From assembly GCF_050874245.1 (NCBI RefSeq), contig NZ_JBNMKH010000001.1, forward strand, positions 9,140 to 73,139: a stretch of 64,000 nt of DNA, in the 5' to 3' direction. Position 1 is the stretch's first letter, and each line of letters opens with the position of its first letter. The DNA is from Bifidobacterium sp. GTDB lineage: Bacteria; Actinomycetota; Actinomycetes; Actinomycetales; Bifidobacteriaceae. The translations under genes were made by a program, and so were the position numbers. Below the pieces are notes generated by a model, which had not been told where the DNA came from, ran no database searches, and worked only from the letters and a program-made list of their open reading frames with translations. Positions 583 to 10,018 of the stretch are shown one piece after another.

Positions 583-2304
583 ATGTTCGTCCTCAGGAAC
601 GCGTGGAAAAGCGTCACCCGCAACAAGGGCCGCAACATTCTCATCATCGTCATCGTTACCATCATCGCGGCCGCCGTCACAATCGGTCTCTCCATCCGTC
701 AAGCCGCAACCACCGCCAGAACGAACGGTCTGGCAGACACCACCGTCACCGCTCAGATCAGCCTCGACAGAAGCAAGCTCATCAACGAATCGAGACAGCA
801 GACCACAACGGATTCCGACTCGTCCGATTCATCCGAAACCGACGGCAAGCCCGACTTCGATGCGATGCGGTCCGCCTTGGCCGACAAACAGCTTTCACTC
901 GCCGACTACCAGAAATACGCGAAGGCGTCCTCAGCCGTTAAATCCACGTATTACACGGAGACCACAGGGCTTTCCGCCACCGACGATTTCCAGCCGGTCA
1001 GCGATTCGGACAATTCGTCCGAATCAAGCGGCTCCGACAATGCCAAGAAGTCCGGCGACGGCTCCGACGACACGGATGCTTCCGGCAAGCAGAATGGCCA
1101 ATCCACTCCACCCGACGGCAAGATGAGCGACAGTGGCGGCATGTCCGGTCAAGACGGAGAAACCATAGTATCCGGCGATTTCTCATTGGTCGGCTTCTCG
1201 TCCGATGAGGCCGTGTCCAACGCGTCCAACGGCAGCTTCACCATGGTGGATGGCAAAGTGTTCGGATACGGCGCAAGCAGCGACGGCGATGTCATCATCT
1301 CCAAATCACTCGCCGATTTCAACAACCTCTCCGTCGGCGACACCATCACCGTCTCCGATACCAACGATTCGGACACCACCTACAAGCTCACCATCGTCGG
1401 CATCTACAAAAACTCCACCGACTCGTCCCAGCAGATGGGAGGGCCGATGCGCTCCACAGCCTCCGACCCGGCCAACGCCATCTACACGTCCGTGTCCACG
1501 CTGAAATCACTGGGACTTGATGCCGACGCCGATTCCGATTCCGCCGCCCAGCTCAGCTACACCTACGTATGCTCCAGCAAATCCGATTACGAGACATTCG
1601 CCAAAGACGCCAAAAAGGCGGGCCTGAGCAGTGACTACACCGTTTCCTCCGCGGATGTGGAAAACTACGAATCCAGCCTGGTGCCATTGAACAACCTCTC
1701 GAAGTTCGCCCTGACGCTGCTGATCGTGGTGCTGGCCGTCGGCGCGGTCGTGCTGGTGGTCATAACCCTGCTTAACGTACGCGAGCGCAAATACGAAATC
1801 GGCGTGCTCACCGCCATCGGCGTGAACAAGGTGAAGGTGGCGGCGCAGTTCACATTGGAACTGCTCATCGTCACCATGATCGGTCTTGCCATAGGAGCGG
1901 GAGCGGGCGCGGCCGTGTCCGTGCCGGTGTCCAACCAGCTGCTTGCCAGCCAGATCGAGCAACAGCAGTCGCAGCAGATCGGCCAGCGCGAACAATTCGG
2001 TAGGGATATGACGAAGTCCGGCGATTCCACCGATTCCAAGGACGGTTCCGATTCCAGTGCCGGTTCCGCAACGGCTGACGAAAGCAATGGCGATGGCGGA
2101 AAGTCCCAGCGGCGGACGCAGGGCGGACCGGGCATGATGGGCCGCGCCGTGGACTATGTCTCCTCCGTCAACGCGACCGTCAATCTCAAGGTGGTCGGGC
2201 AACTGCTGCTCGTCGGACTGGGCCTGACGCTGGTCGCGGCGCTGGTCGCGGTGGTGTTCGTGCTGCGTTACGAGCCGCTGCAGATCCTCGCCGACCGTTC
2301 CTGA
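583..2304 (+). CDS. MacB/FtsX-family ABC transporter permease
   Basis: N-terminal AWKSVTRNKGRNILI plus a TM helix; large extracellular domain with S/D/G-rich linkers; RERKYEIGVLTAIG motif; three C-terminal TM helices; AAGGAAA RBS. Confidence 0.9.
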   Translation: MFVLRNAWKSVTRNKGRNILIIVIVTIIAAAVTIGLSIRQAATTARTNGLADTTVTAQISLDRSKLINESRQQTTTDSDSSDSSETDGKPDFDAMRSALADKQLSLADYQKYAKASSAVKSTYYTETTGLSATDDFQPVSDSDNSSESSGSDNAKKSGDGSDDTDASGKQNGQSTPPDGKMSDSGGMSGQDGETIVSGDFSLVGFSSDEAVSNASNGSFTMVDGKVFGYGASSDGDVIISKSLADFNNLSVGDTITVSDTNDSDTTYKLTIVGIYKNSTDSSQQMGGPMRSTASDPANAIYTSVSTLKSLGLDADADSDSAAQLSYTYVCSSKSDYETFAKDAKKAGLSSDYTVSSADVENYESSLVPLNNLSKFALTLLIVVLAVGAVVLVVITLLNVRERKYEIGVLTAIGVNKVKVAAQFTLELLIVTMIGLAIGAGAGAAVSVPVSNQLLASQIEQQQSQQIGQREQFGRDMTKSGDSTDSKDGSDSSAGSATADESNGDGGKSQRRTQGGPGMMGRAVDYVSSVNATVNLKVVGQLLLVGLGLTLVAALVAVVFVLRYEPLQILADRS

Positions 2305-2340
2305 TCGCACGACCACACATCACTTTTGAAAGGATTTCCC

Positions 2341-3093
2341 ATGATCACGAAAAACATGAATGCCGCAATCGACGGCGGAACGGGAAAGGGCACGGAACGG
2401 CAAGCACGCCAAACGGATGCGCCGACGCTTCGTCTCGACGATGTCAGCTATGCTTACACCAAAGGCGGCAAACGCGTGCTGAGGAACATCAGTCATGATT
2501 TTCATGCCGGCAAAGTGCATGCCATCACCGGACCATCGGGAGCGGGCAAGACCACGCTGCTCTCACTTATCTCGGGACTCGCCGTTCCCACGGAGGGCAA
2601 GGTACTAATAGACGGGGAGGATCTGGCCAAGCGGGACCGTTATCGTTTTCGCAGCCACGACATCGGCGTGATATTCCAAAGTTTCAACCTGCTGCCCAAC
2701 CTCACCGTTGCGGAGAACATCATCCTGTCGATGGACGCATCCGGCAAATCCTTCGACAGGCTTAAGAAAGACATCGTCTACGGGCTGCTCGAACAAGTGC
2801 ATCTGCCCAAGGAATACGCCAACGAACGCATCCTGCACCTGTCCGGTGGCGAGCAGCAGCGCGTTGCGATAGCCCGGGCGCTCAGCTACGATCCGGCCAT
2901 CATCGTGGCGGACGAGCCAACCGGCAATCTCGACCTCGCCACCCAGGACGACATCATGGGCATCTTCCAGGCGCTTGCGCATGATGGGAATCGCTGCGTC
3001 ATCATTGTGACGCACAGTCCGGAAGTGGCCAAGGCGTCGGATGAGGTGTTCGAGCTGGCGCCGATCAGAAGGCGCGGACGGCAAGGAAACTAG
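2341..3093 (+). CDS. LolD/MacB-type ABC transporter ATP-binding protein
   Basis: Walker A GPSGAGKT, signature LSGGEQQR, Walker B IIVADEPT, H-loop VTHS; 36 nt downstream of the permease. Confidence 0.95.
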   Translation: MITKNMNAAIDGGTGKGTERQARQTDAPTLRLDDVSYAYTKGGKRVLRNISHDFHAGKVHAITGPSGAGKTTLLSLISGLAVPTEGKVLIDGEDLAKRDRYRFRSHDIGVIFQSFNLLPNLTVAENIILSMDASGKSFDRLKKDIVYGLLEQVHLPKEYANERILHLSGGEQQRVAIARALSYDPAIIVADEPTGNLDLATQDDIMGIFQALAHDGNRCVIIVTHSPEVAKASDEVFELAPIRRRGRQGN

Positions 3094-3185
3094 GATACGC
3101 TCCAGGCAGACGGAAAAGCGACTGGACGGCAAGGCGACGGACGGCATTCCCATCATCGGCATCACGTGGAAAGCCTCCCGTCGTC

Positions 3186-3213
3186 TTGTCTTGTTGGACG
3201 GTGCCGCTATCAT
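3186..3213 (+). promoter_or_regulatory. Putative sigma70-type promoter of the riboswitch operon
   Basis: TTGTCT (3186-3191), 16-nt spacer, TATCAT (3208-3213). This would put the transcription start just before riboswitch P1 at about 3224. Confidence 0.5.
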
Positions 3214-3223
3214 TGGATTTTCG

Positions 3224-3308
3224 AGTACAGGGGCGCCGAATGCGGCTGAGACGGGCAAGGCCCGAACCCTTCAACCTGATCAGGATAATGCCTGCGTAGG
3301 GATGGTAC
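3224..3308 (+). ncRNA. TPP riboswitch (THI-box) aptamer
   Basis: P1 GUAC/GUAC; P2 GGG/CCC; P3 GCCG-aaug-CGGC; conserved GCUGAGA; P3a CGGGC-aag-GCCCG; then ACCUGAUCAGGAUAAUGCCUGCGUAGGGA, matching the canonical TPP P4/P5 core. Confidence 0.95.
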
Positions 3309-3403
3309 CGGTCACATGCATGGCCATGCTCCGTGCAAGCGCGCCTTCTGTGTCTCGATGAATCATCGCAGCATACGGAAAAGCGGCAAACGGAAATCGG
3401 AGG

Positions 3404-4810
3404 ATGCCCATGGCCAGTACAATGTCATCGCCGACGGCGGAGCAATCACAATCCACGAAGCGGTCACAGGACGGGACCGCATCCGTGACAGCCGGAGATG
3501 GAGGCGCTTCCGGCAAGCTCACACCTAAAAACGCCTTGCTTGGCCTGCAGCACGTGCTTGTGTCCAACGTATGGCTCGACCCGGTGTTCGTGGCCGGAGC
3601 CATCGGTCTTCCTCTGGCGTTGTCGTCGAATATGGTGAACGCCATTTTCATCGTGTCCGGTTTGGTCACGCTCATCCAGACCACCAAACTGGTGCGCCTT
3701 CCCATCGTGCAGGGTCCTTCGGCAGCGTTCGACGCGCTGATGATCGCGGCGGGCACAGCCGGCTCTCTTGCCGCGGCGGGCACGTCGATCTTCATCAGCT
3801 CGCTGATTTTCCTCGTGCTATGCCTGACACGCGTGATAGAGAAGCTACGGTTTCTGTTCGCTCCGATCGTATCGGGCGTGGTCATCTTCCTCGTCGGTGT
3901 GTCGCTGTCGAGCTTCACGTTAAGCGAATTCCTCGGCGGGGCGCCTGGCGACAAGGGTTTCGCCGACCCGAAGACCTTGGCTGTTTCCATAGTCACCTGT
4001 GTTCTGGTGGTGGCGCTCTCCCAATTTGGCAAGGGCATGGCGAAAGCGTTGTCGTATCTGATCGCGCTGGTTGTGGGAACGGCGATGTCGCTGGCGTTCG
4101 GCATGGCGGATTTCTCCGAAGTTTCGTCCAAGCCGTGGCTTGGTCTACCGAAATTCATGCCATATGGCGGCTTCGATTTCAATGCGGCGATTTTTGTGCC
4201 TTTCCTCATCGCATACCTGGTGGCCATCATGGAGGCGCTCGGCGTATATCAGGCCGCCACGGAGATTCAGGGAACAGAGCTTGAGAATCGCCAGGTGCGC
4301 TATGGGCTTGCCGGCGAGGCCGCGGGCTCGGCGATCTCCTCGCTGATCGGCGGCTTCACCACCACCGCATATCCGCAGAACGTCGCGTTGCTCAAAGTCA
4401 CCGATGAAGGCAAGACACGCACCCGTGTGCCGGTGATCATCGCAGGCGTGGTATTCGTGGTCCTTGGATTCATTCCGAAGGCCGGCGCGGTGCTTTCCCT
4501 TATCCCATCCCCGGTGATCGGCGGCATCTTCCTGCCGGCCGCGGCCAGTCTCATCAGCACCGGCTTCAACACGCTGCGCAAAGTGGAAGGCAACGACCGC
4601 AACCAAGTGGTGATCGGTCTTTCCCTGCTGCTCGGCATCGCCTTGCCGAACGCGCTCAGCGGCCTCGAAGGCGGAGCACATGTGTTCTTCTCGAACTCGA
4701 TTCTGGTAGGAGCGTTCAGCGTGGTGATTCTCAAGGCGCTCGTCATCGATCTGCCGGATATGATTGCGCGGCGCGCAGGGAAAACGGAACGTACGAAGCA
4801 AGCGGAATAA
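3404..4810 (+). CDS. NCS2/NAT (uracil-xanthine permease) family transporter, TPP-regulated
   Basis: GGAGG RBS; TM1 LGLQH motif; many TM segments; degenerate NAT signature QNVALLKVTD. An alternative start is at 3410. Confidence 0.9.
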   Translation: MPMASTMSSPTAEQSQSTKRSQDGTASVTAGDGGASGKLTPKNALLGLQHVLVSNVWLDPVFVAGAIGLPLALSSNMVNAIFIVSGLVTLIQTTKLVRLPIVQGPSAAFDALMIAAGTAGSLAAAGTSIFISSLIFLVLCLTRVIEKLRFLFAPIVSGVVIFLVGVSLSSFTLSEFLGGAPGDKGFADPKTLAVSIVTCVLVVALSQFGKGMAKALSYLIALVVGTAMSLAFGMADFSEVSSKPWLGLPKFMPYGGFDFNAAIFVPFLIAYLVAIMEALGVYQAATEIQGTELENRQVRYGLAGEAAGSAISSLIGGFTTTAYPQNVALLKVTDEGKTRTRVPVIIAGVVFVVLGFIPKAGAVLSLIPSPVIGGIFLPAAASLISTGFNTLRKVEGNDRNQVVIGLSLLLGIALPNALSGLEGGAHVFFSNSILVGAFSVVILKALVIDLPDMIARRAGKTERTKQAE

Positions 4811-4867
4811 TCGACACCGTCACGGCATCGGACATCGCATATACGGACATACGGAAAGGAACATGGC

Positions 4868-6010
4868 ATGAACACGCGTCAATCGCAGGAATCGGCGACA
4901 CTTGACGAGCAGAAGGCGGACATCAAGCGGGAGGTGCTCGACTTCATATCACGATACGGTTGCGCCAAAGCGCCGGATGATGCGTTCGACAGGCTGGCCA
5001 GACGCATCTTCTCTTTCCAGTTCGAGCATAATCTCCCCTATCGCGCCTACTGCATGTCCAAACGCGTCACTCCGCAGACGCTCACCAATTGGATGCAGAT
5101 TCCACCGATGCCGGTCGATGGCTTCAAGATGCTGACGCTCACCTCCGTGCCGGAAAATGATTGCGAGGCGGTGTTCACCACCAGCGGCACCACGCATCCC
5201 GGACAACGTGGCCGCAATTTCCATCCCGATCTTGAGGTATGGGACGAATCGATGATCGTGCCGTTCAGGCATTTCATCATGCCCGACCGCGAGCGCATCC
5301 GCATCGCGGTGCTCTCCCCCGCATGGGATATGAACGAGCATTCGTCGCTGTCACGGTATTTGACCCGTGCCATTCAGGAATGTGGCGCCGACGGCAGTGG
5401 CTTCTTCTTCCATGAGGATGGTCTTGATTTCACCGGCGTCGAGCATTTCCTCGACAAGGCTTCGGCCGGTAATGAGCCGGTGATGCTGATGGGCGCGTCT
5501 TCGGCCTACTTGTATCTGCTGGATTATCTGGACAAGCAGGGCAAGACCTATCGTCTTGCAGCCGATTCGCGCATATTCGACACGGGCGGTTTCAAAAGCA
5601 CCCGTACCGATATGACCGTCGACGACCTGTATGCGGCGTTCGGACGCGTGTTCGGGGTGCGGCGCACGCATTGTGTGAACATGTACGGCATGACGGAGCT
5701 GAGTTCCCAGATCTATGACCAGAATATTCTATCCTATTACACGGACGGTTCGTCGAATTATTTGAAGGAGACGCCGTCTTGGGTGCGCTCGGTATTCCTT
5801 GATCCGGCCACGCTCACGCCGGTCGCCGACGGGGAACAGGGCGTGATCGCGCATTACGATCTGGCGAATTGGAATTCCTGTCTGGCGATTCTGACGGAGG
5901 ATCTGGGCGTGCGTACGGAACACGGCTACGAACTGAATGGCCGTGCGAAGGGTGCCGAGGCGCGCGGCTGCTCGATCACCGTCGACGAGGTGATGGCGGC
6001 CAACGCATGA
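4868..6010 (+). CDS. luxE-like: LuxE-family acyl-protein synthetase
   Basis: FTTSGTT adenylation P-loop, GGFK, NMYGMTELSSQ, ILTEDLG, and C-terminal GRAKGAEARGCS with the acyl-accepting Cys (codon 5969-5971, Cys368). Confidence 0.88.
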   Translation: MNTRQSQESATLDEQKADIKREVLDFISRYGCAKAPDDAFDRLARRIFSFQFEHNLPYRAYCMSKRVTPQTLTNWMQIPPMPVDGFKMLTLTSVPENDCEAVFTTSGTTHPGQRGRNFHPDLEVWDESMIVPFRHFIMPDRERIRIAVLSPAWDMNEHSSLSRYLTRAIQECGADGSGFFFHEDGLDFTGVEHFLDKASAGNEPVMLMGASSAYLYLLDYLDKQGKTYRLAADSRIFDTGGFKSTRTDMTVDDLYAAFGRVFGVRRTHCVNMYGMTELSSQIYDQNILSYYTDGSSNYLKETPSWVRSVFLDPATLTPVADGEQGVIAHYDLANWNSCLAILTEDLGVRTEHGYELNGRAKGAEARGCSITVDEVMAANA

Positions 6011-7524
6011 GCGTCGTCGATGTTTTCCACGCGCCTCGCGATTTCACGTTCTCCGATTTCGACACGCGCGACGTTTCGTTGCCTGACGGCGATACGGTGA
6101 CGTTGCGTTTTCCCCGGCTTGACGCTTCCGCGGTGCACGCGTTGGCTGATTCGGTCCGTCGGCATCGCGAGAGAACGCTGGCACGATATTCCACGGATGG
6201 AATCGTGGACATCATCGCACAGGCGGTTGAATTGTGGACCAATCCATCGTACTCGGAACGTAGGCTTGCGGAACGTCTCATTCCCGCGATCACCGGCTAT
6301 GACGCCTCCATGGTGCGTATCGAATTGAAACGGTACATGCGCATGTTTCGCAGACGCGAGCTGCTGCGTTTCGTGGATGACGAATTGGATTGCCCGCAGA
6401 TGCTCGACGAGTACCGTCCGAACCGATCGGGCGGATACACGCGCTTGTATGGTCCAGAACTGTCGTTCCATGTATTCTCCAGCAATGTGCCGGGCATTCC
6501 GGTGTGGAGCATGACGATGTCCTTGCTGACGAAAAGCTCGATTCTCGGCAAATCGTCGTTCGACGAGCCGCTGATGCCGGTGCTGTTCGCCCGTTCACTG
6601 GCAAGTGTCGATCCCGATATGGCGGATGCGATGGCGATCGTGCCATGGCGTGGAGGCACGGTGGATTTGGAGGATGCGGCGATTGACGAGGCGGACGCGG
6701 TGATCGCATACGGTTCCTCGCATGCCACCGAGGCGATTCGTCCCCGCGTGCGTTCCGGCAAGCCGTTCCTGAGTTACGGCGCGAAAATCGGCTTCTCCTT
6801 GATCGGTCATGAGGCTCTCCGCGCGGACCTGTATGCCGATACCGTTCACCGCATGGCCATCGATGTCGCCACATACGACCAGCAAAGCTGTCTGGCGCCG
6901 CAAACCATGTTCGTGGAACGCGACGGCGCCGTGCCTCCCGCCCATGTCGCGGAGCTGCTCGCCTGCGAACTGGAATCCCAACAGTGCAAATATCCCCGTT
7001 CCACACCTTCCGAGGAAGAATCCCTGGCCATCCAGCGGCTTCGTTCCACAGCGCAGATGAAAGCCCTGATGCTGGGCGCCGGTCCACTGGCCGGCGTCTG
7101 CGAATCCGATGACGATTCCACGGCAACGGACGACCCGTTCGTCGTCCAATCACGTTCGGGCACCGATTGGACGGTACTGTATTATCCGTCGGTCGGCATG
7201 GCCGACTCCCTCTCCACGCCGTTGAACCGCACCATCAACGTCGTGGCGGTGGACCATGTGGAGGACGCGCTGCCGGTTTTGCGTCCCTACGCGCAGTGGC
7301 TGCAGACTTGTGGTGTGGCATTGGGGCCGGATAGGCTGTTTGCGGTGGCGCAGCGCGTCGGCGCCATGGGCATTGACCGCATATGTCCCCTTGGCGAGAT
7401 GAATCGCGCGAAATCCGGATGGCATCATGATGGCGGCTTCAATCTGCTTGATTTGGTGCATGCGGTCGACATCGAACGCAACACCGACGTGTATTGCGAC
7501 GGCTTCGACATGGATGTCGAATGA
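6007..7524 (+). CDS. luxC-like: LuxC-family acyl-CoA/acyl-protein reductase
   Basis: ATGA overlap with the luxE stop. Motifs SNVPGIP, ILGKSS, VIAYGS, YDQQSCLAPQ (catalytic Cys295, codon 6889-6891), RICPLGEM, WHHDG. Confidence 0.88.
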   Translation: MSVVDVFHAPRDFTFSDFDTRDVSLPDGDTVTLRFPRLDASAVHALADSVRRHRERTLARYSTDGIVDIIAQAVELWTNPSYSERRLAERLIPAITGYDASMVRIELKRYMRMFRRRELLRFVDDELDCPQMLDEYRPNRSGGYTRLYGPELSFHVFSSNVPGIPVWSMTMSLLTKSSILGKSSFDEPLMPVLFARSLASVDPDMADAMAIVPWRGGTVDLEDAAIDEADAVIAYGSSHATEAIRPRVRSGKPFLSYGAKIGFSLIGHEALRADLYADTVHRMAIDVATYDQQSCLAPQTMFVERDGAVPPAHVAELLACELESQQCKYPRSTPSEEESLAIQRLRSTAQMKALMLGAGPLAGVCESDDDSTATDDPFVVQSRSGTDWTVLYYPSVGMADSLSTPLNRTINVVAVDHVEDALPVLRPYAQWLQTCGVALGPDRLFAVAQRVGAMGIDRICPLGEMNRAKSGWHHDGGFNLLDLVHAVDIERNTDVYCDGFDMDVE

Positions 7525-7577
7525 TTCCATCCACGTCATCCCGTAAAAACTTTTTCTCCGAATCGAAAGGAACTTTC

Positions 7578-8369
7578 ATGCAGTCTGATCTTCTGCCATT
7601 GAACGGACGTGTGGCTGTGGTGACGGGCGCGAGCCGCGGCATCGGCGCTGCCATCGCGCGGCGTCTGGTCCGGGCCGGGGCATGTGTGGTCATCGACTAT
7701 GTCAGCGATGACGAGCGAGCCCAACAGTGCGCGCGGCATATCATGGACGACTGCGATGCGGCCGGACGCGTGATCACCTGCAAAGCCGACATCACCGACG
7801 CCGGACAGGTACGGAACATGGTCTCCACCGCAATCACCACGTTCGGCGGATTGGACATTCTCGTCAACAACGCGTTCGCGCATTACTCGTTCGATCCACG
7901 CAACCGCAGGACCTTCGACGTGATCGGATGGAACGATTACGCGGCACAGCTGGAGGGCTGTCTCAAAGGCGCGTACAACACATGCGAGGCGGTGCTACCG
8001 CAGATGAGACGTCAAGCGGGCGGACGCATCATCAACATCTCCAGCAACCTCGTGGACTCCCCCATCGTCCCATACCACGACTATACCGCGGCAAAAGGCG
8101 CGCTTGTCGGATTCACCCGCTCTCTGGCGCAGGAGGCGGGCGCGTGGGGCGTGACCGTGAACGCCATCGCAGCAGGTCTCACCGTGGGCACCGATTCGAG
8201 CCGAGCCACCACCGAGGATGTACGGGAACGCATCATCAGATCCACTCCGATGGGCAGACTCGCCACCGCCGATGACATCGCCGGAGCCGTGGCCATGCTC
8301 GCCGGCGATGACGCGGCGTTCATCACCGGTCAGACCCTGCATGTCGATGGCGGCCTTGTGATGCGCTGA
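7578..8369 (+). CDS. Classical short-chain dehydrogenase/reductase (FabG-like)
   Basis: TGASRGIG, NNA, IINISSN, PYHDYTAAK (YxxxK), GQTLHVDGG; AAGGA RBS. Confidence 0.92.
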   Translation: MQSDLLPLNGRVAVVTGASRGIGAAIARRLVRAGACVVIDYVSDDERAQQCARHIMDDCDAAGRVITCKADITDAGQVRNMVSTAITTFGGLDILVNNAFAHYSFDPRNRRTFDVIGWNDYAAQLEGCLKGAYNTCEAVLPQMRRQAGGRIINISSNLVDSPIVPYHDYTAAKGALVGFTRSLAQEAGAWGVTVNAIAAGLTVGTDSSRATTEDVRERIIRSTPMGRLATADDIAGAVAMLAGDDAAFITGQTLHVDGGLVMR

Positions 8370-8489
8370 CCGAACGGAGGGCCGCAGAAGCACGGGAGCA
8401 TGCGGGTATAGTGGTGCGTTGGCCCGGACGCCGGCATCACACGGCACAGGACTTCACAGTCACGGCACGTCCACCGGTAAGGAGGAAAC

Positions 8490-9032
8490 ATGAACATCAC
8501 CGTGTATCTCGGCGCGCATAAAGGCAACGATCCGTCCTATAAGGAAGCCGTTGAGGAATTGGGCGCATGGATCGCTGACAGCGGCAATCGTCTGGTGTAC
8601 GGCGGATCCGATGAGGGATTGATGGCGGATATCGCCGATTCCGTACTATCCCACGGCGGCGAAGTGACCGGCATCGAGGCACAGATGTTCGCGGACCGAG
8701 GTGTCGCGCATACAGGATTGACCGAATTGGTCATCGTGCCGGACATCACCGAACGTCGTACGCGCATGATCGAGCTTGGCGATGTGTTCATCGCCTTCCC
8801 CGGCGGCACGGGCACTTTGGAGGAAATCAGCGAGGTCGTGTCGAAAATCTGCCTCAGCCAGCTGTCCCAACCGTGCATTTTCTATAATCTCAACGGTTTC
8901 TACGACGATATGAAGGCTTTCCTGCAGCGGATGGTCGATGAGGGTTTCTCCACCGCGGACCGGCAACGAGGCATCTATTTCGCGTCCAACCTAGCGGAAA
9001 TCGAACGAATCATCGCCGGTTCCCGCCCATAG
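8490..9032 (+). CDS. LOG-family (TIGR00730) Rossmann-fold nucleotide phosphoribohydrolase
   Basis: LVYGG, GLM, R..RMIELGD, FPGGTGTLEE motif; AAGGAGG RBS. Confidence 0.9.
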   Translation: MNITVYLGAHKGNDPSYKEAVEELGAWIADSGNRLVYGGSDEGLMADIADSVLSHGGEVTGIEAQMFADRGVAHTGLTELVIVPDITERRTRMIELGDVFIAFPGGTGTLEEISEVVSKICLSQLSQPCIFYNLNGFYDDMKAFLQRMVDEGFSTADRQRGIYFASNLAEIERIIAGSRP

Positions 9033-9088
9033 GCCACCCCTGCGGCACCTCCACATGCTTGTCCGTTCCGGGATTCGAATGGTTGGAA

Positions 9089-10018
9089 TCATGCCACCGG
9101 CAACACCGCGTGCAGAACCGTCATGATCGCCAATCCGATGACCGCGGTGACGGTCAGTGAGAAGCCGGCAAGCTTGGCGTTGCCGGTCAACGAATCTGTG
9201 AATTTCGTGGAGAAGATCGTCACCGGAGCGAATGCGGCCAACACCACGATTTCGCGGACACGCTCGTCGAGCGGCAGCAGAAACCAAGCGGCCAATGCGA
9301 TGATGATGCTGAACAGGAACCGCCATGCTATGACCTTGCCGAGTTCCGAACGGTCCTTATGGTTGTCGGGAATCTCCATCATGAGGCCGATCATGGCCAT
9401 CGCGGCGAACGCGTTGGCGTTGGCGAATGGCGTGATGAGCGTGACTATCCATTGCGGCACGCTCCATCCGGCAAACATGAACACCAGCATGAGCACGTAG
9501 CAGTCGAATGAGATCGACGAATAGAAGTCATGGGCGATGTTCTTGATTTTCAGACTCAATGGCAGATTTTTGGTCGGGCTTCCCAGATGCAGCAACGAGC
9601 GGGTAATGGTCAGGGATGCGGCGGTGGCGATGATGGCGTTGCCGATATCAAGCATGATGACCGGCAGACCGGCGCTTGGTCCCATGAAGGTCTGCACCAC
9701 CGGCAAGCAGAACGCGCCGATGTTCAGTCCGGACGCGTTAAGCATCTGGTAGGCGCGATACCGCGGCTCGTCACCTCGTGATCCGAAGTACACGACGAAC
9801 AGCGGAATCATGCAGGCGAACAATCCGAAAACCACCAGCCACAGCAGATTCATCGGATGCTTGTTCGTGGCGAAGCTCATTACGATGGCACAAGGCAGAG
9901 TGAGGTTGAACACCAGGCCCTGCACCACTTTGTATGATTTGTCCGAAAAAATATGGATGCGCTTGAGCAGATAAACGCTGATGATGACGAGTAGCAATGA
10001 TCCGGCTTGGAACAACAT
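9089..10018 (-). CDS. AEC (auxin efflux carrier/malate permease) family transporter
   Basis: About 10 TM helices, LTLPC, NIGAFCLP; start trimmed to MLFQAG. Confidence 0.8.
   Translation of the reverse strand: MLFQAGSLLLVIISVYLLKRIHIFSDKSYKVVQGLVFNLTLPCAIVMSFATNKHPMNLLWLVVFGLFACMIPLFVVYFGSRGDEPRYRAYQMLNASGLNIGAFCLPVVQTFMGPSAGLPVIMLDIGNAIIATAASLTITRSLLHLGSPTKNLPLSLKIKNIAHDFYSSISFDCYVLMLVFMFAGWSVPQWIVTLITPFANANAFAAMAMIGLMMEIPDNHKDRSELGKVIAWRFLFSIIIALAAWFLLPLDERVREIVVLAAFAPVTIFSTKFTDSLTGNAKLAGFSLTVTAVIGLAIMTVLHAVLPVA

Follow-up and report, generated by a model that had tools for sequence, protein, structure and literature searches.

Results

The window analyzed here, a stretch of 64,000 nucleotides from a Bifidobacterium genome (NCBI RefSeq assembly GCF_050874245.1, contig NZ_JBNMKH010000001.1, positions 9,140 to 73,139), encodes on its forward strand a permease of the NCS2/NAT family (3410..4810, +) that is preceded by a thiamine pyrophosphate (TPP) riboswitch and followed by genes for a LuxE-like, a LuxC-like and a short-chain dehydrogenase/reductase (SDR) protein. 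A sequence-only reading of the locus had singled out the permease for its altered NAT signature, QNVALLKVTD, and had taken this alteration, together with the presumed TPP control, to indicate uptake of a thiazole or pyrimidine derivative rather than of a purine or uracil. The function best supported by the locus and its relatives is uptake of a thiamine pyrimidine acid and/or of HMP (4-amino-5-hydroxymethyl-2-methylpyrimidine) for reductive salvage, with the steps beyond the gene assignments being ones that we infer.

Gene Organization and Control

Downstream of the permease gene, the luxE-like gene (4868..6010, +) encodes an acyl-protein synthetase-like adenylating enzyme (Pfam LuxE, E = 9.2e-22) and the luxC-like gene (6007..7524, +) an acyl reductase (Pfam LuxC, E = 1e-115), whose start, as read from the sequence, overlaps the luxE-like stop codon in an ATGA. 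The fourth gene (7578..8369, +; start and ribosome-binding site likewise read from the sequence) codes for a FabG/OarX-like SDR (Pfam adh_short_C2, E = 4.9e-53), and no terminator-like site was found between the four genes. LuxE and LuxC together constitute an ATP- and NADPH-dependent carboxylate-to-aldehyde system, established for the lux fatty acid reductase. The cassette has these two Pfam families in common with the enzyme of luminous bacteria and couples their genes by the ATGA overlap, but its proteins score far below the NCBIfam equivalog cut-offs (73.7 bits against 550 for LuxE, 88.2 bits against 750 for LuxC), its context is thiamine metabolism, and neither LuxD nor a luciferase was seen in its surveyed flank.

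The presumed riboswitch was borne out: a full-length TPP aptamer (Rfam RF00059; 71.1 bits, gathering threshold 54.3, E = 1e-12) lies upstream of the permease at 3219..3321 (+). The adjoining segment (3322..3409, +) is a putative expression platform, in which a CUCCG stretch 3' of the aptamer is predicted by minimum free energy folding, with an unremarkable z-score, to pair with the GGAGG Shine-Dalgarno sequence and the start region. A terminator scan found no intrinsic terminator in 3000-9400, which fits translational control. In the same interval, a consensus scan returned one promoter-like site (TTGTCT, 16 nt spacer, TATCAT; 3186..3213, +), a match that alone is no evidence of function. The genes of an unrelated MacB-like exporter pair (together 583-3093, +), coding for an FtsX-type permease of 573 aa and for an ABC ATPase of 255 aa, end about 90 nt before this site.

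To place the locus among its relatives, we surveyed 120 database homologues of the permease and 80 genomic loci, 75 of them belonging to the ingroup. Rfam detected TPP aptamers at nine of ten sampled permease loci, and with a covariance model built from these we located 83 aptamers, distributed over 69 of the 75 ingroup loci; almost all lie upstream of the gene and on its strand, often in tandem. Five of the six loci lacking one sit on truncated contigs. The riboswitch link thus spans four phyla (Actinomycetota, Bacillota, Chloroflexota, Thermomicrobiota), and the riboswitch-less actinobacterial relatives (37-44% identity) are also without the cassette. Tandem aptamers precede the permease in many Bacillota (upstream of about 7001 in L019, L020, L021, L022, L030, L036, L038, L039-L041, L044, L047 and L062), an arrangement that may render the off-switch sharper or more cooperative; a single aptamer is present at the Bifidobacterium permease loci.

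The order permease-LuxE-LuxC-SDR is kept, among the 80 loci, in Bifidobacterium, Bacillaceae, Sporolactobacillaceae, Lactobacillaceae, Paenibacillaceae and Desulfosporosinus, and 66 of the 75 ingroup loci include LuxC. Chloroflexota show the order LuxE-LuxC-permease; their LuxE carries a fused zinc alcohol dehydrogenase, and no homologue of the SDR was found there. That an SDR and a zinc alcohol dehydrogenase occupy the same slot supports an aldehyde-to-alcohol reduction as the last step. In one Chloroflexota metagenome-assembled genome (MAG), LuxC and the NCS2 permease come after a 974-aa protein in which ADH_N and ADH_zinc_N are fused to LuxE (L080:2378-5302). The permease has thiamine genes as neighbors in 23 of the 80 loci, in the arrangements thiM-thiD-thiE-permease, permease-lux-SDR-thiM-thiD-thiE and thiO-thiG-thiF-permease-lux-SDR-thiD-thiE. 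By its conserved upstream aptamer and its linkage to thi genes, the permease belongs to the TPP-riboswitch regulon.

Two Peribacillus deserti strains (L021, L036) retain tandem riboswitches and an intact permease; L021 has only a LuxE fragment after it (L021:8337-8705), without LuxC or SDR, and L036 has none of the three, which points to the reductive part having been lost recently. The gene that comes after the SDR gene in the window (8490-9032, +), of the LOG ("possible lysine decarboxylase") family, was rejected as a member of the cassette, being found only in the two closest relatives (L009, L010). Elsewhere in Actinomycetota the cassette was not found: one of 300 sampled genomes has LuxC, in an unrelated system with no riboswitch nearby.

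Family Membership and Fold of the Permease

The open reading frame (ORF) of the permease (P0001; 3404-4810, +) spans 468 aa, and its likely start is the ATG at 3410, 6-7 nt past the GGAGG, giving 466 aa as in the orthologue of Bifidobacterium ruminantium (96% identity). Residues 43-415 match positions 3-384 of the 389 in Pfam Xan_ur_permease (PF00860; E = 2.1e-68, 231.3 bits against a cut-off of 27). Foldseek matched the AlphaFold model best to SVCT1, UapA and UraA (probability 1.00, TM-score 0.57-0.68), which bears out the 7+7 inverted-repeat elevator fold of NAT/NCS2 carriers. The mean predicted local distance difference test (pLDDT) score is 66, weak at transmembrane helices (TM) 1-3 and TM10, and since confidence is low at TM1-3 and at the NAT motif, no pocket geometry was derived.

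Could this be an ordinary xanthine or uracil permease, whose riboswitch link has no thiamine-specific meaning? Source records name its relatives uracil or xanthine permease, and the closest NCBIfam model is pbuX (TIGR03173; 325.5 bits). That score, however, remains under the pbuX cut-off of 414.15, and those against UraA (76.3 bits, cut-off 477) and RutG (75.4 bits, cut-off 758.65) lie far under theirs; the riboswitch link is conserved in four phyla; and the family is without the TM3 Phe and the TM8 Asp/His discussed below. Moreover, the same genome holds further NCS2 paralogues, canonical ones of xanthine type (EVLGD, QNIGLVAMTK) and of uracil type (ENVGH, ENIGVMAATK) and an AzgA-like one, so that ordinary nucleobase uptake is covered elsewhere. 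We therefore regard this explanation as extremely unlikely, and members of the TPP-linked clade are probably misnamed by annotations like "uracil/xanthine permease" or "SLC23 protein".

The NAT Signature and the Marks of the Subfamily

The NAT signature of the permease lies in TM10 (residues 325-334; 4376..4405, +), with Ala replacing the Gly of motif position 4 and an Asp as last residue in place of Gly, Arg or Lys. As a description, the sequence-only reading was accurate: aligned with UraA, XanQ, UacT and SVCT1, the decapeptide lines up with the signature column for column, the TM1 Gln-His motif is retained (Q49-H50; 3548..3553, +), and a charged stretch, EGKTRTR, follows. HMMER alignments to solved structures set QNVALLKVTD on UraA ENIGVMAITR and SVCT1 PNIGVLGITK, and when E. 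coli proteins of the annotated K-12 record are aligned with the permease by MAFFT, it falls on XanQ QNNGVIQMTG and UacT QNVGLVSVTR. The motif position is set by homology and not by a pattern match, and chance is therefore not at issue. Two of the five fixed positions of the canonical signature (PMC5972032) deviate. The EGKTRTR stretch holds a three-residue insertion relative to Bacillota orthologues, which a second Bifidobacterium clade has as well.

Among the homologues and loci surveyed, the A/D motif occurs only in the window and in eight other Bifidobacterium species-level genomes (B. ruminantium, B. catulorum, B. pluvialisilvae, B. primatium, B. hominis, B. saimiriisciurei and two MAGs). 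The second Bifidobacterium clade (B. reuteri and a MAG) reads QNVGLLNLTG, most Bacillota and Chloroflexota orthologues QNVGLL[R/K]LTG, and two Paenibacillus genomes QNVSLLRLTR; the canonical motif is complete in most other orthologues, across Bacillota, Chloroflexota and the second Bifidobacterium clade. In a maximum-likelihood tree of permeases from a quick search, the nine A/D sequences are monophyletic (SH-aLRT 98) inside a Bifidobacterium clade (100), which is nested in Bacillota beside Lactobacillaceae (99). This nesting suggests that the cassette reached Bifidobacterium from Bacillota and that the A/D pair, which arose once on the branch to the nine species, came afterwards. Each change takes one nucleotide (GGY to GCN; GGY to GAY). 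Because the motif amino acids are invariant in the nine species despite synonymous differences at all ten codons, the A/D state is kept by selection and does not reflect decay. The signature is a variant of one lineage inside an already specialized transporter subfamily.

What might the two substitutions do? In UapA, the main binding site comprises F155, E356, A407 and Q408, and G411, T416 and R417 lie, together with D360, on the cytoplasm-facing substrate trajectory (PMC3405029). The two changed positions of the permease correspond to UapA G411 and R417, and its substrate-contacting Gln-Asn is unchanged. G411V immobilizes UapA, other specific G411 substitutions, with G411A listed among them, raise the apparent V about two-fold, and R417G lowers the affinity for uric acid but not for xanthine (PMC3405029); Gly7 and Gly/Arg/Lys13 of the NAT motif have been classed as kinetic and not as specificity residues (PMC5972032). 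Since specific UapA G411 variants stay active, Gly to Ala is compatible with function, and by analogy the final Asp could modulate affinity or coupling and might affect selectivity to some degree. Most orthologues have Arg or Lys at motif position 7, and in the permease the Lys at this position, Lys331, could pair with Asp334, three residues away in a predicted helical stretch.

Conceivably, the A/D change might itself re-target the Bifidobacterium permease to a substrate unlike that of its canonical-motif orthologues. Nine species have the pair fixed under purifying selection, R417 of UapA has an influence on the affinity for uric acid (PMC3405029), and a Lys331-Asp334 pairing could cancel the positive charge at motif position 7. 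Such a switch is nevertheless distinctly unlikely, given that the riboswitch and the LuxE/LuxC/SDR genes and their order are as in canonical-motif relatives, that no change affects the Gln-Asn of the binding site, the Glu of TM8 or the block in TM3, that the altered positions have been assigned to kinetics or to the substrate trajectory (PMC5972032, PMC3405029), and that a Gly-to-Ser variant in another lineage (L066, L071) leaves the riboswitch context unchanged. Because canonical-motif orthologues share the riboswitch and mostly the cassette, the A/D pair is not the mark of an unusual substrate; most likely it tunes transport kinetics or coupling rather than setting the substrate class. The proposal of the sequence-only reading is thereby split: the substrate class that it named is probably correct, being well supported by the genomic context and not by the motif, and its use of the motif as a substrate mark, for which the tuning of uric acid affinity at UapA R417 speaks, conflicts with the canonical relatives in the same context and with the kinetic role of the positions.

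Other positions set the whole subfamily apart. The TM1 Gln-His occurs in all TPP-linked members, as against Gln-Gln in the riboswitch-less actinobacterial outgroup, and is followed by VSNVWLDP in every riboswitch-linked member. In the TM3 block QGPSAAFD (3710..3733, +), Ala107 stands at the position of UraA F73, XanQ F94 and UapA F155; this Ala is invariant in all TPP-linked loci, with the block identical or bearing one conservative change (EGPSAAFD, QGPSASFD, EGPSATFD). The TM8 block EALGVY (4232..4249, +) keeps Glu277, and Val281 replaces the Asp, His or Gly of the E-x-x-G-[D/H/G] motif (PMC5972032), held by XanQ D276 and UraA H245. Every riboswitch-linked member reads E-A-x-G-V-Y here, and E. 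coli UacT deviates at this position too, with Met. The carboxyl at the XanQ D276 position is essential, and the UraA His is thought to serve proton coupling (PMC3405029). The family-wide TM3 Ala and TM8 Val agree better than the A/D pair with a substrate other than a nucleobase and are likelier determinants of specificity and coupling, and the subfamily is better defined by TPP-riboswitch control, TM3 Ala and TM8 Val than by its A/D signature.

Taken against the purine carriers XanQ, PbuX and UacT (NCS2/NAT, COG2233), the permease shares Pfam family and fold and keeps the TM1 Gln-His, the TM8 Glu and the TM10 Gln-Asn...Thr, but its family has exchanged TM3 Phe for Ala and TM8 Asp for Val throughout, the A/D Bifidobacterium clade adds TM10 Gly to Ala and the final Asp, and the context is a TPP riboswitch with LuxE/LuxC/SDR instead of purine genes. 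UraA and RutG, which carry small pyrimidines, have the fold in common (the UraA alignment covers residues 69-453); here the permease differs by Gln instead of Glu at motif position one and by the missing TM8 His.

Candidate Cargo of the Cassette

If the permease does not define the cargo by its signature, which substrate does the cassette as a whole point to? Among 400 sampled Bacillota genomes, six others had a LuxC match, and five of these loci were fetched. Three of the five contain a riboswitch-LuxE-LuxC-SDR unit with no NCS2 gene in the locus. Between LuxC and SDR, two of these three carry the parts of an ABC importer, namely an ATPase, a permease and a binding protein of NMT1/THI5 type (ThiY-like); in the third, the unit runs on into ThiL::ThiN, opposite a divergent riboswitch-thiD-thiM-thiE operon. 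A ThiXYZ-type ABC importer, which serves thiamine pyrimidine salvage, can thus fill the transporter slot of the same cassette, a replacement that favors a pyrimidine cargo, with a primary ABC transporter and its binding protein there and a secondary elevator-type carrier in the permease. A functional analogy is offered by CytX, reportedly predicted by Rodionov et al. in 2002 to be an NCS1-family HMP transporter of the TPP regulon: it, too, is said to be a secondary carrier of nucleobase type that was recruited to take up the thiamine pyrimidine under control of a TPP riboswitch, but with the LeuT fold of NCS1 and no link to a carboxylate-reducing module. The ThiL::ThiN gene of the third unit (L097:10826-12379, Bacillota G614) is a fusion of a ThiL-like protein (AIRS domains) with ThiN and directly follows LuxE-LuxC-SDR.

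Host gene content points the same way. ThiC is absent from 21, ThiG from eight and ThiM from two of 50 permease-bearing genomes, and 13 of the 50 are ThiC-negative and ThiG-positive against none of the reverse, counts that come from related genomes without a phylogenetically corrected baseline. Paenibacillus sepulcri and P. nasutitermitis have no true ThiM (only partial ThiM-like matches of 21-30 bits) and share the operon riboswitch-tenI/thiE-thiO-thiG-thiF-permease-luxE-luxC-SDR-thiD-thiE. P. nasutitermitis is also without ThiC, and there the operon can give thiamine phosphate only when HMP is supplied by the cassette.

The chemistry of the cassette would serve a thiazole equally well. The cargo might be the thiazole acid 4-methylthiazole-5-acetate (MTA), which the cassette would reduce to 4-methyl-5-(2-hydroxyethyl)thiazole (HET) for phosphorylation by ThiM; the sequence acid to aldehyde to alcohol fits this conversion, ThiM is present in 48 of the 50 hosts, the cassette often adjoins thiM or thiO/thiG/thiF, and the contexts of OarX, a riboswitch-linked SDR, have been read as thiazole-linked (PMC11223231). 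Against it, the two ThiM-less hosts keep the cassette between thiazole-synthesis genes and thiD, the ThiC/ThiG asymmetry runs in the opposite direction, and the transporter of the cassette, whether NCS2 or ThiY/NMT1-type ABC, is in either case from a family that binds pyrimidines. We consider a thiazole acid unlikely.

TPP control fits any thiamine-related cargo, and the permease might instead carry either thiamine in intact form or thiamine acetic acid, which is known to arise by oxidation (PMC11223231), with the cassette reducing the latter to thiamine. We find this very unlikely, as the permease is embedded in thiM-thiD-thiE and thiD-thiE operons that serve precursor assembly, and the genome of the window already has a riboswitch-controlled YkoEDC importer. 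NCS2 pockets, furthermore, accept small planar bases.

Several observations weigh against a pyrimidine acid as the cargo. The genome counts given above are not independent of phylogeny, and clustering with thiazole-synthesis genes could point to a thiazole. 4-Amino-2-methylpyrimidine-5-carboxylate (PCA), the expected acid, did not rescue thiC-less C. glutamicum (PMC11223231); control searches found no LuxC-family match in C. glutamicum, and this negative does not test the cassette for that reason. Five Paenibacillus/Cohnella genomes carry riboswitch-thiM-thiD-thiE-permease with no LuxC anywhere in the genome, so that the permease must also carry a cargo usable without reduction, and the Peribacillus deserti loci likewise speak against an acid as the exclusive cargo; probably the additional cargo is a directly usable precursor, most simply HMP. 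The organism of the window, finally, is probably a prototroph, whose gene content does not discriminate between substrates, and the AlphaFold confidence falls below 50 exactly at residues 328 and 334, in a model that is poor at TM1-3 and the NAT motif.

The genome of the window encodes ThiM, ThiE::ThiC and ThiD behind a second riboswitch, the YkoEDC importer behind a third, and ThiG. As a test of pyrimidine versus thiazole, its thi gene content was discarded as uninformative, ThiC, ThiG, ThiM and ThiD all being present; the cassette would spare this organism resources without being a necessity. Between thiM and thiD lies an 873-aa ORF (contig C5:28053-30674; L089:1254-3875) that fuses ThiE, the thiamine phosphate synthase, to ThiC, and a like fusion is suggested in the other Bifidobacterium genomes by the length of their ThiC ORFs, about 890-925 aa. 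A search for Thi4 returned only weak Rossmann-type matches. A fourth TPP-like match in the genome (C90:554-653, minus strand; L091) scores 42.9 bits, under the gathering threshold of 54.3, and has no convincing downstream ORF on its strand in the 553 nt left of the contig.

Discussion

We envision the following scenario. When TPP is low, the riboswitch would free the ribosome-binding site. The permease would then import an oxidized thiamine pyrimidine, most likely PCA, and probably HMP too; LuxE would activate the carboxylate with ATP, LuxC would reduce it to the aldehyde, and the SDR would reduce the aldehyde to HMP, which ThiD and ThiE could then use. Once the cassette had come in from Bacillota, the two substitutions, Gly to Ala and Gly to Asp, would have become fixed under purifying selection in one Bifidobacterium clade. 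Taken as a whole, the reading of the permease as the intact, divergent NCS2/NAT uptake component of a four-gene cassette, with PCA as its most likely and HMP as its probable cargo and an A/D pair that tunes kinetics or coupling, is one that we hold with modest confidence, as somewhat better than an even proposition. A bolder version, in which the NCS2 subfamily is a dedicated PCA importer that opens an undescribed ATP/NADPH salvage route from PCA via the aldehyde to HMP, with Asp334 and Lys331 altering coupling or charge, is somewhat less than even in our estimate.

How does the cassette relate to what has been described? Oliveira-Filho, Rodionov and Hanson (2024) proposed that the riboswitch-linked SDR OarX reduces carboxyl oxidation products of thiamine, namely PCA, MTA or thiamine acetic acid (PMC11223231). 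The SDR of the cassette is likewise FabG-like and riboswitch-linked. It scores 276 bits on NF006393, under the cut-off of 292, and of 14 control genomes, that of C. glutamicum, where OarX was investigated, is the only one picked up by this model. This is consistent with the cassette SDR being an OarX-type enzyme but falls short of proof. The main text of the OarX paper mentions no LuxE, LuxC or NCS2 partner (PMC11223231), and in the literature open to our search we came upon no account of a TPP-riboswitch NCS2 subfamily or of a LuxE/LuxC-thiamine cassette, with the OarX paper alone being relevant.

Thiamine salvage is poorly mapped. We know of no fate for the main oxidized thiamine catabolites, PCA, MTA and thiamine acetic acid, which are excreted by mammals and formed by microbes. 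OarX has been an orphan since 2002, and in 2024 its obvious substrates proved negative in a host without LuxE/LuxC partners; if the proposed route holds true, this orphan type of reductase would gain a function, and with the permease a carrier of nucleobase type would for the first time have been shown to import a breakdown product of a vitamin. A vitamin-precursor specificity would thus be added to a transporter family known for nucleobases and ascorbate. The same case illustrates that a deviation in the NAT signature is, taken alone, a poor predictor of substrate class. If true, Asp334 would restore a carboxylate on the cytoplasm-facing trajectory of a carrier that has lost the otherwise essential TM8 Asp, and would alter, together with Lys331, coupling or charge handling in gut bifidobacteria. 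For these bacteria, the cassette suggests the scavenging of host- or community-derived breakdown products of vitamin B1.

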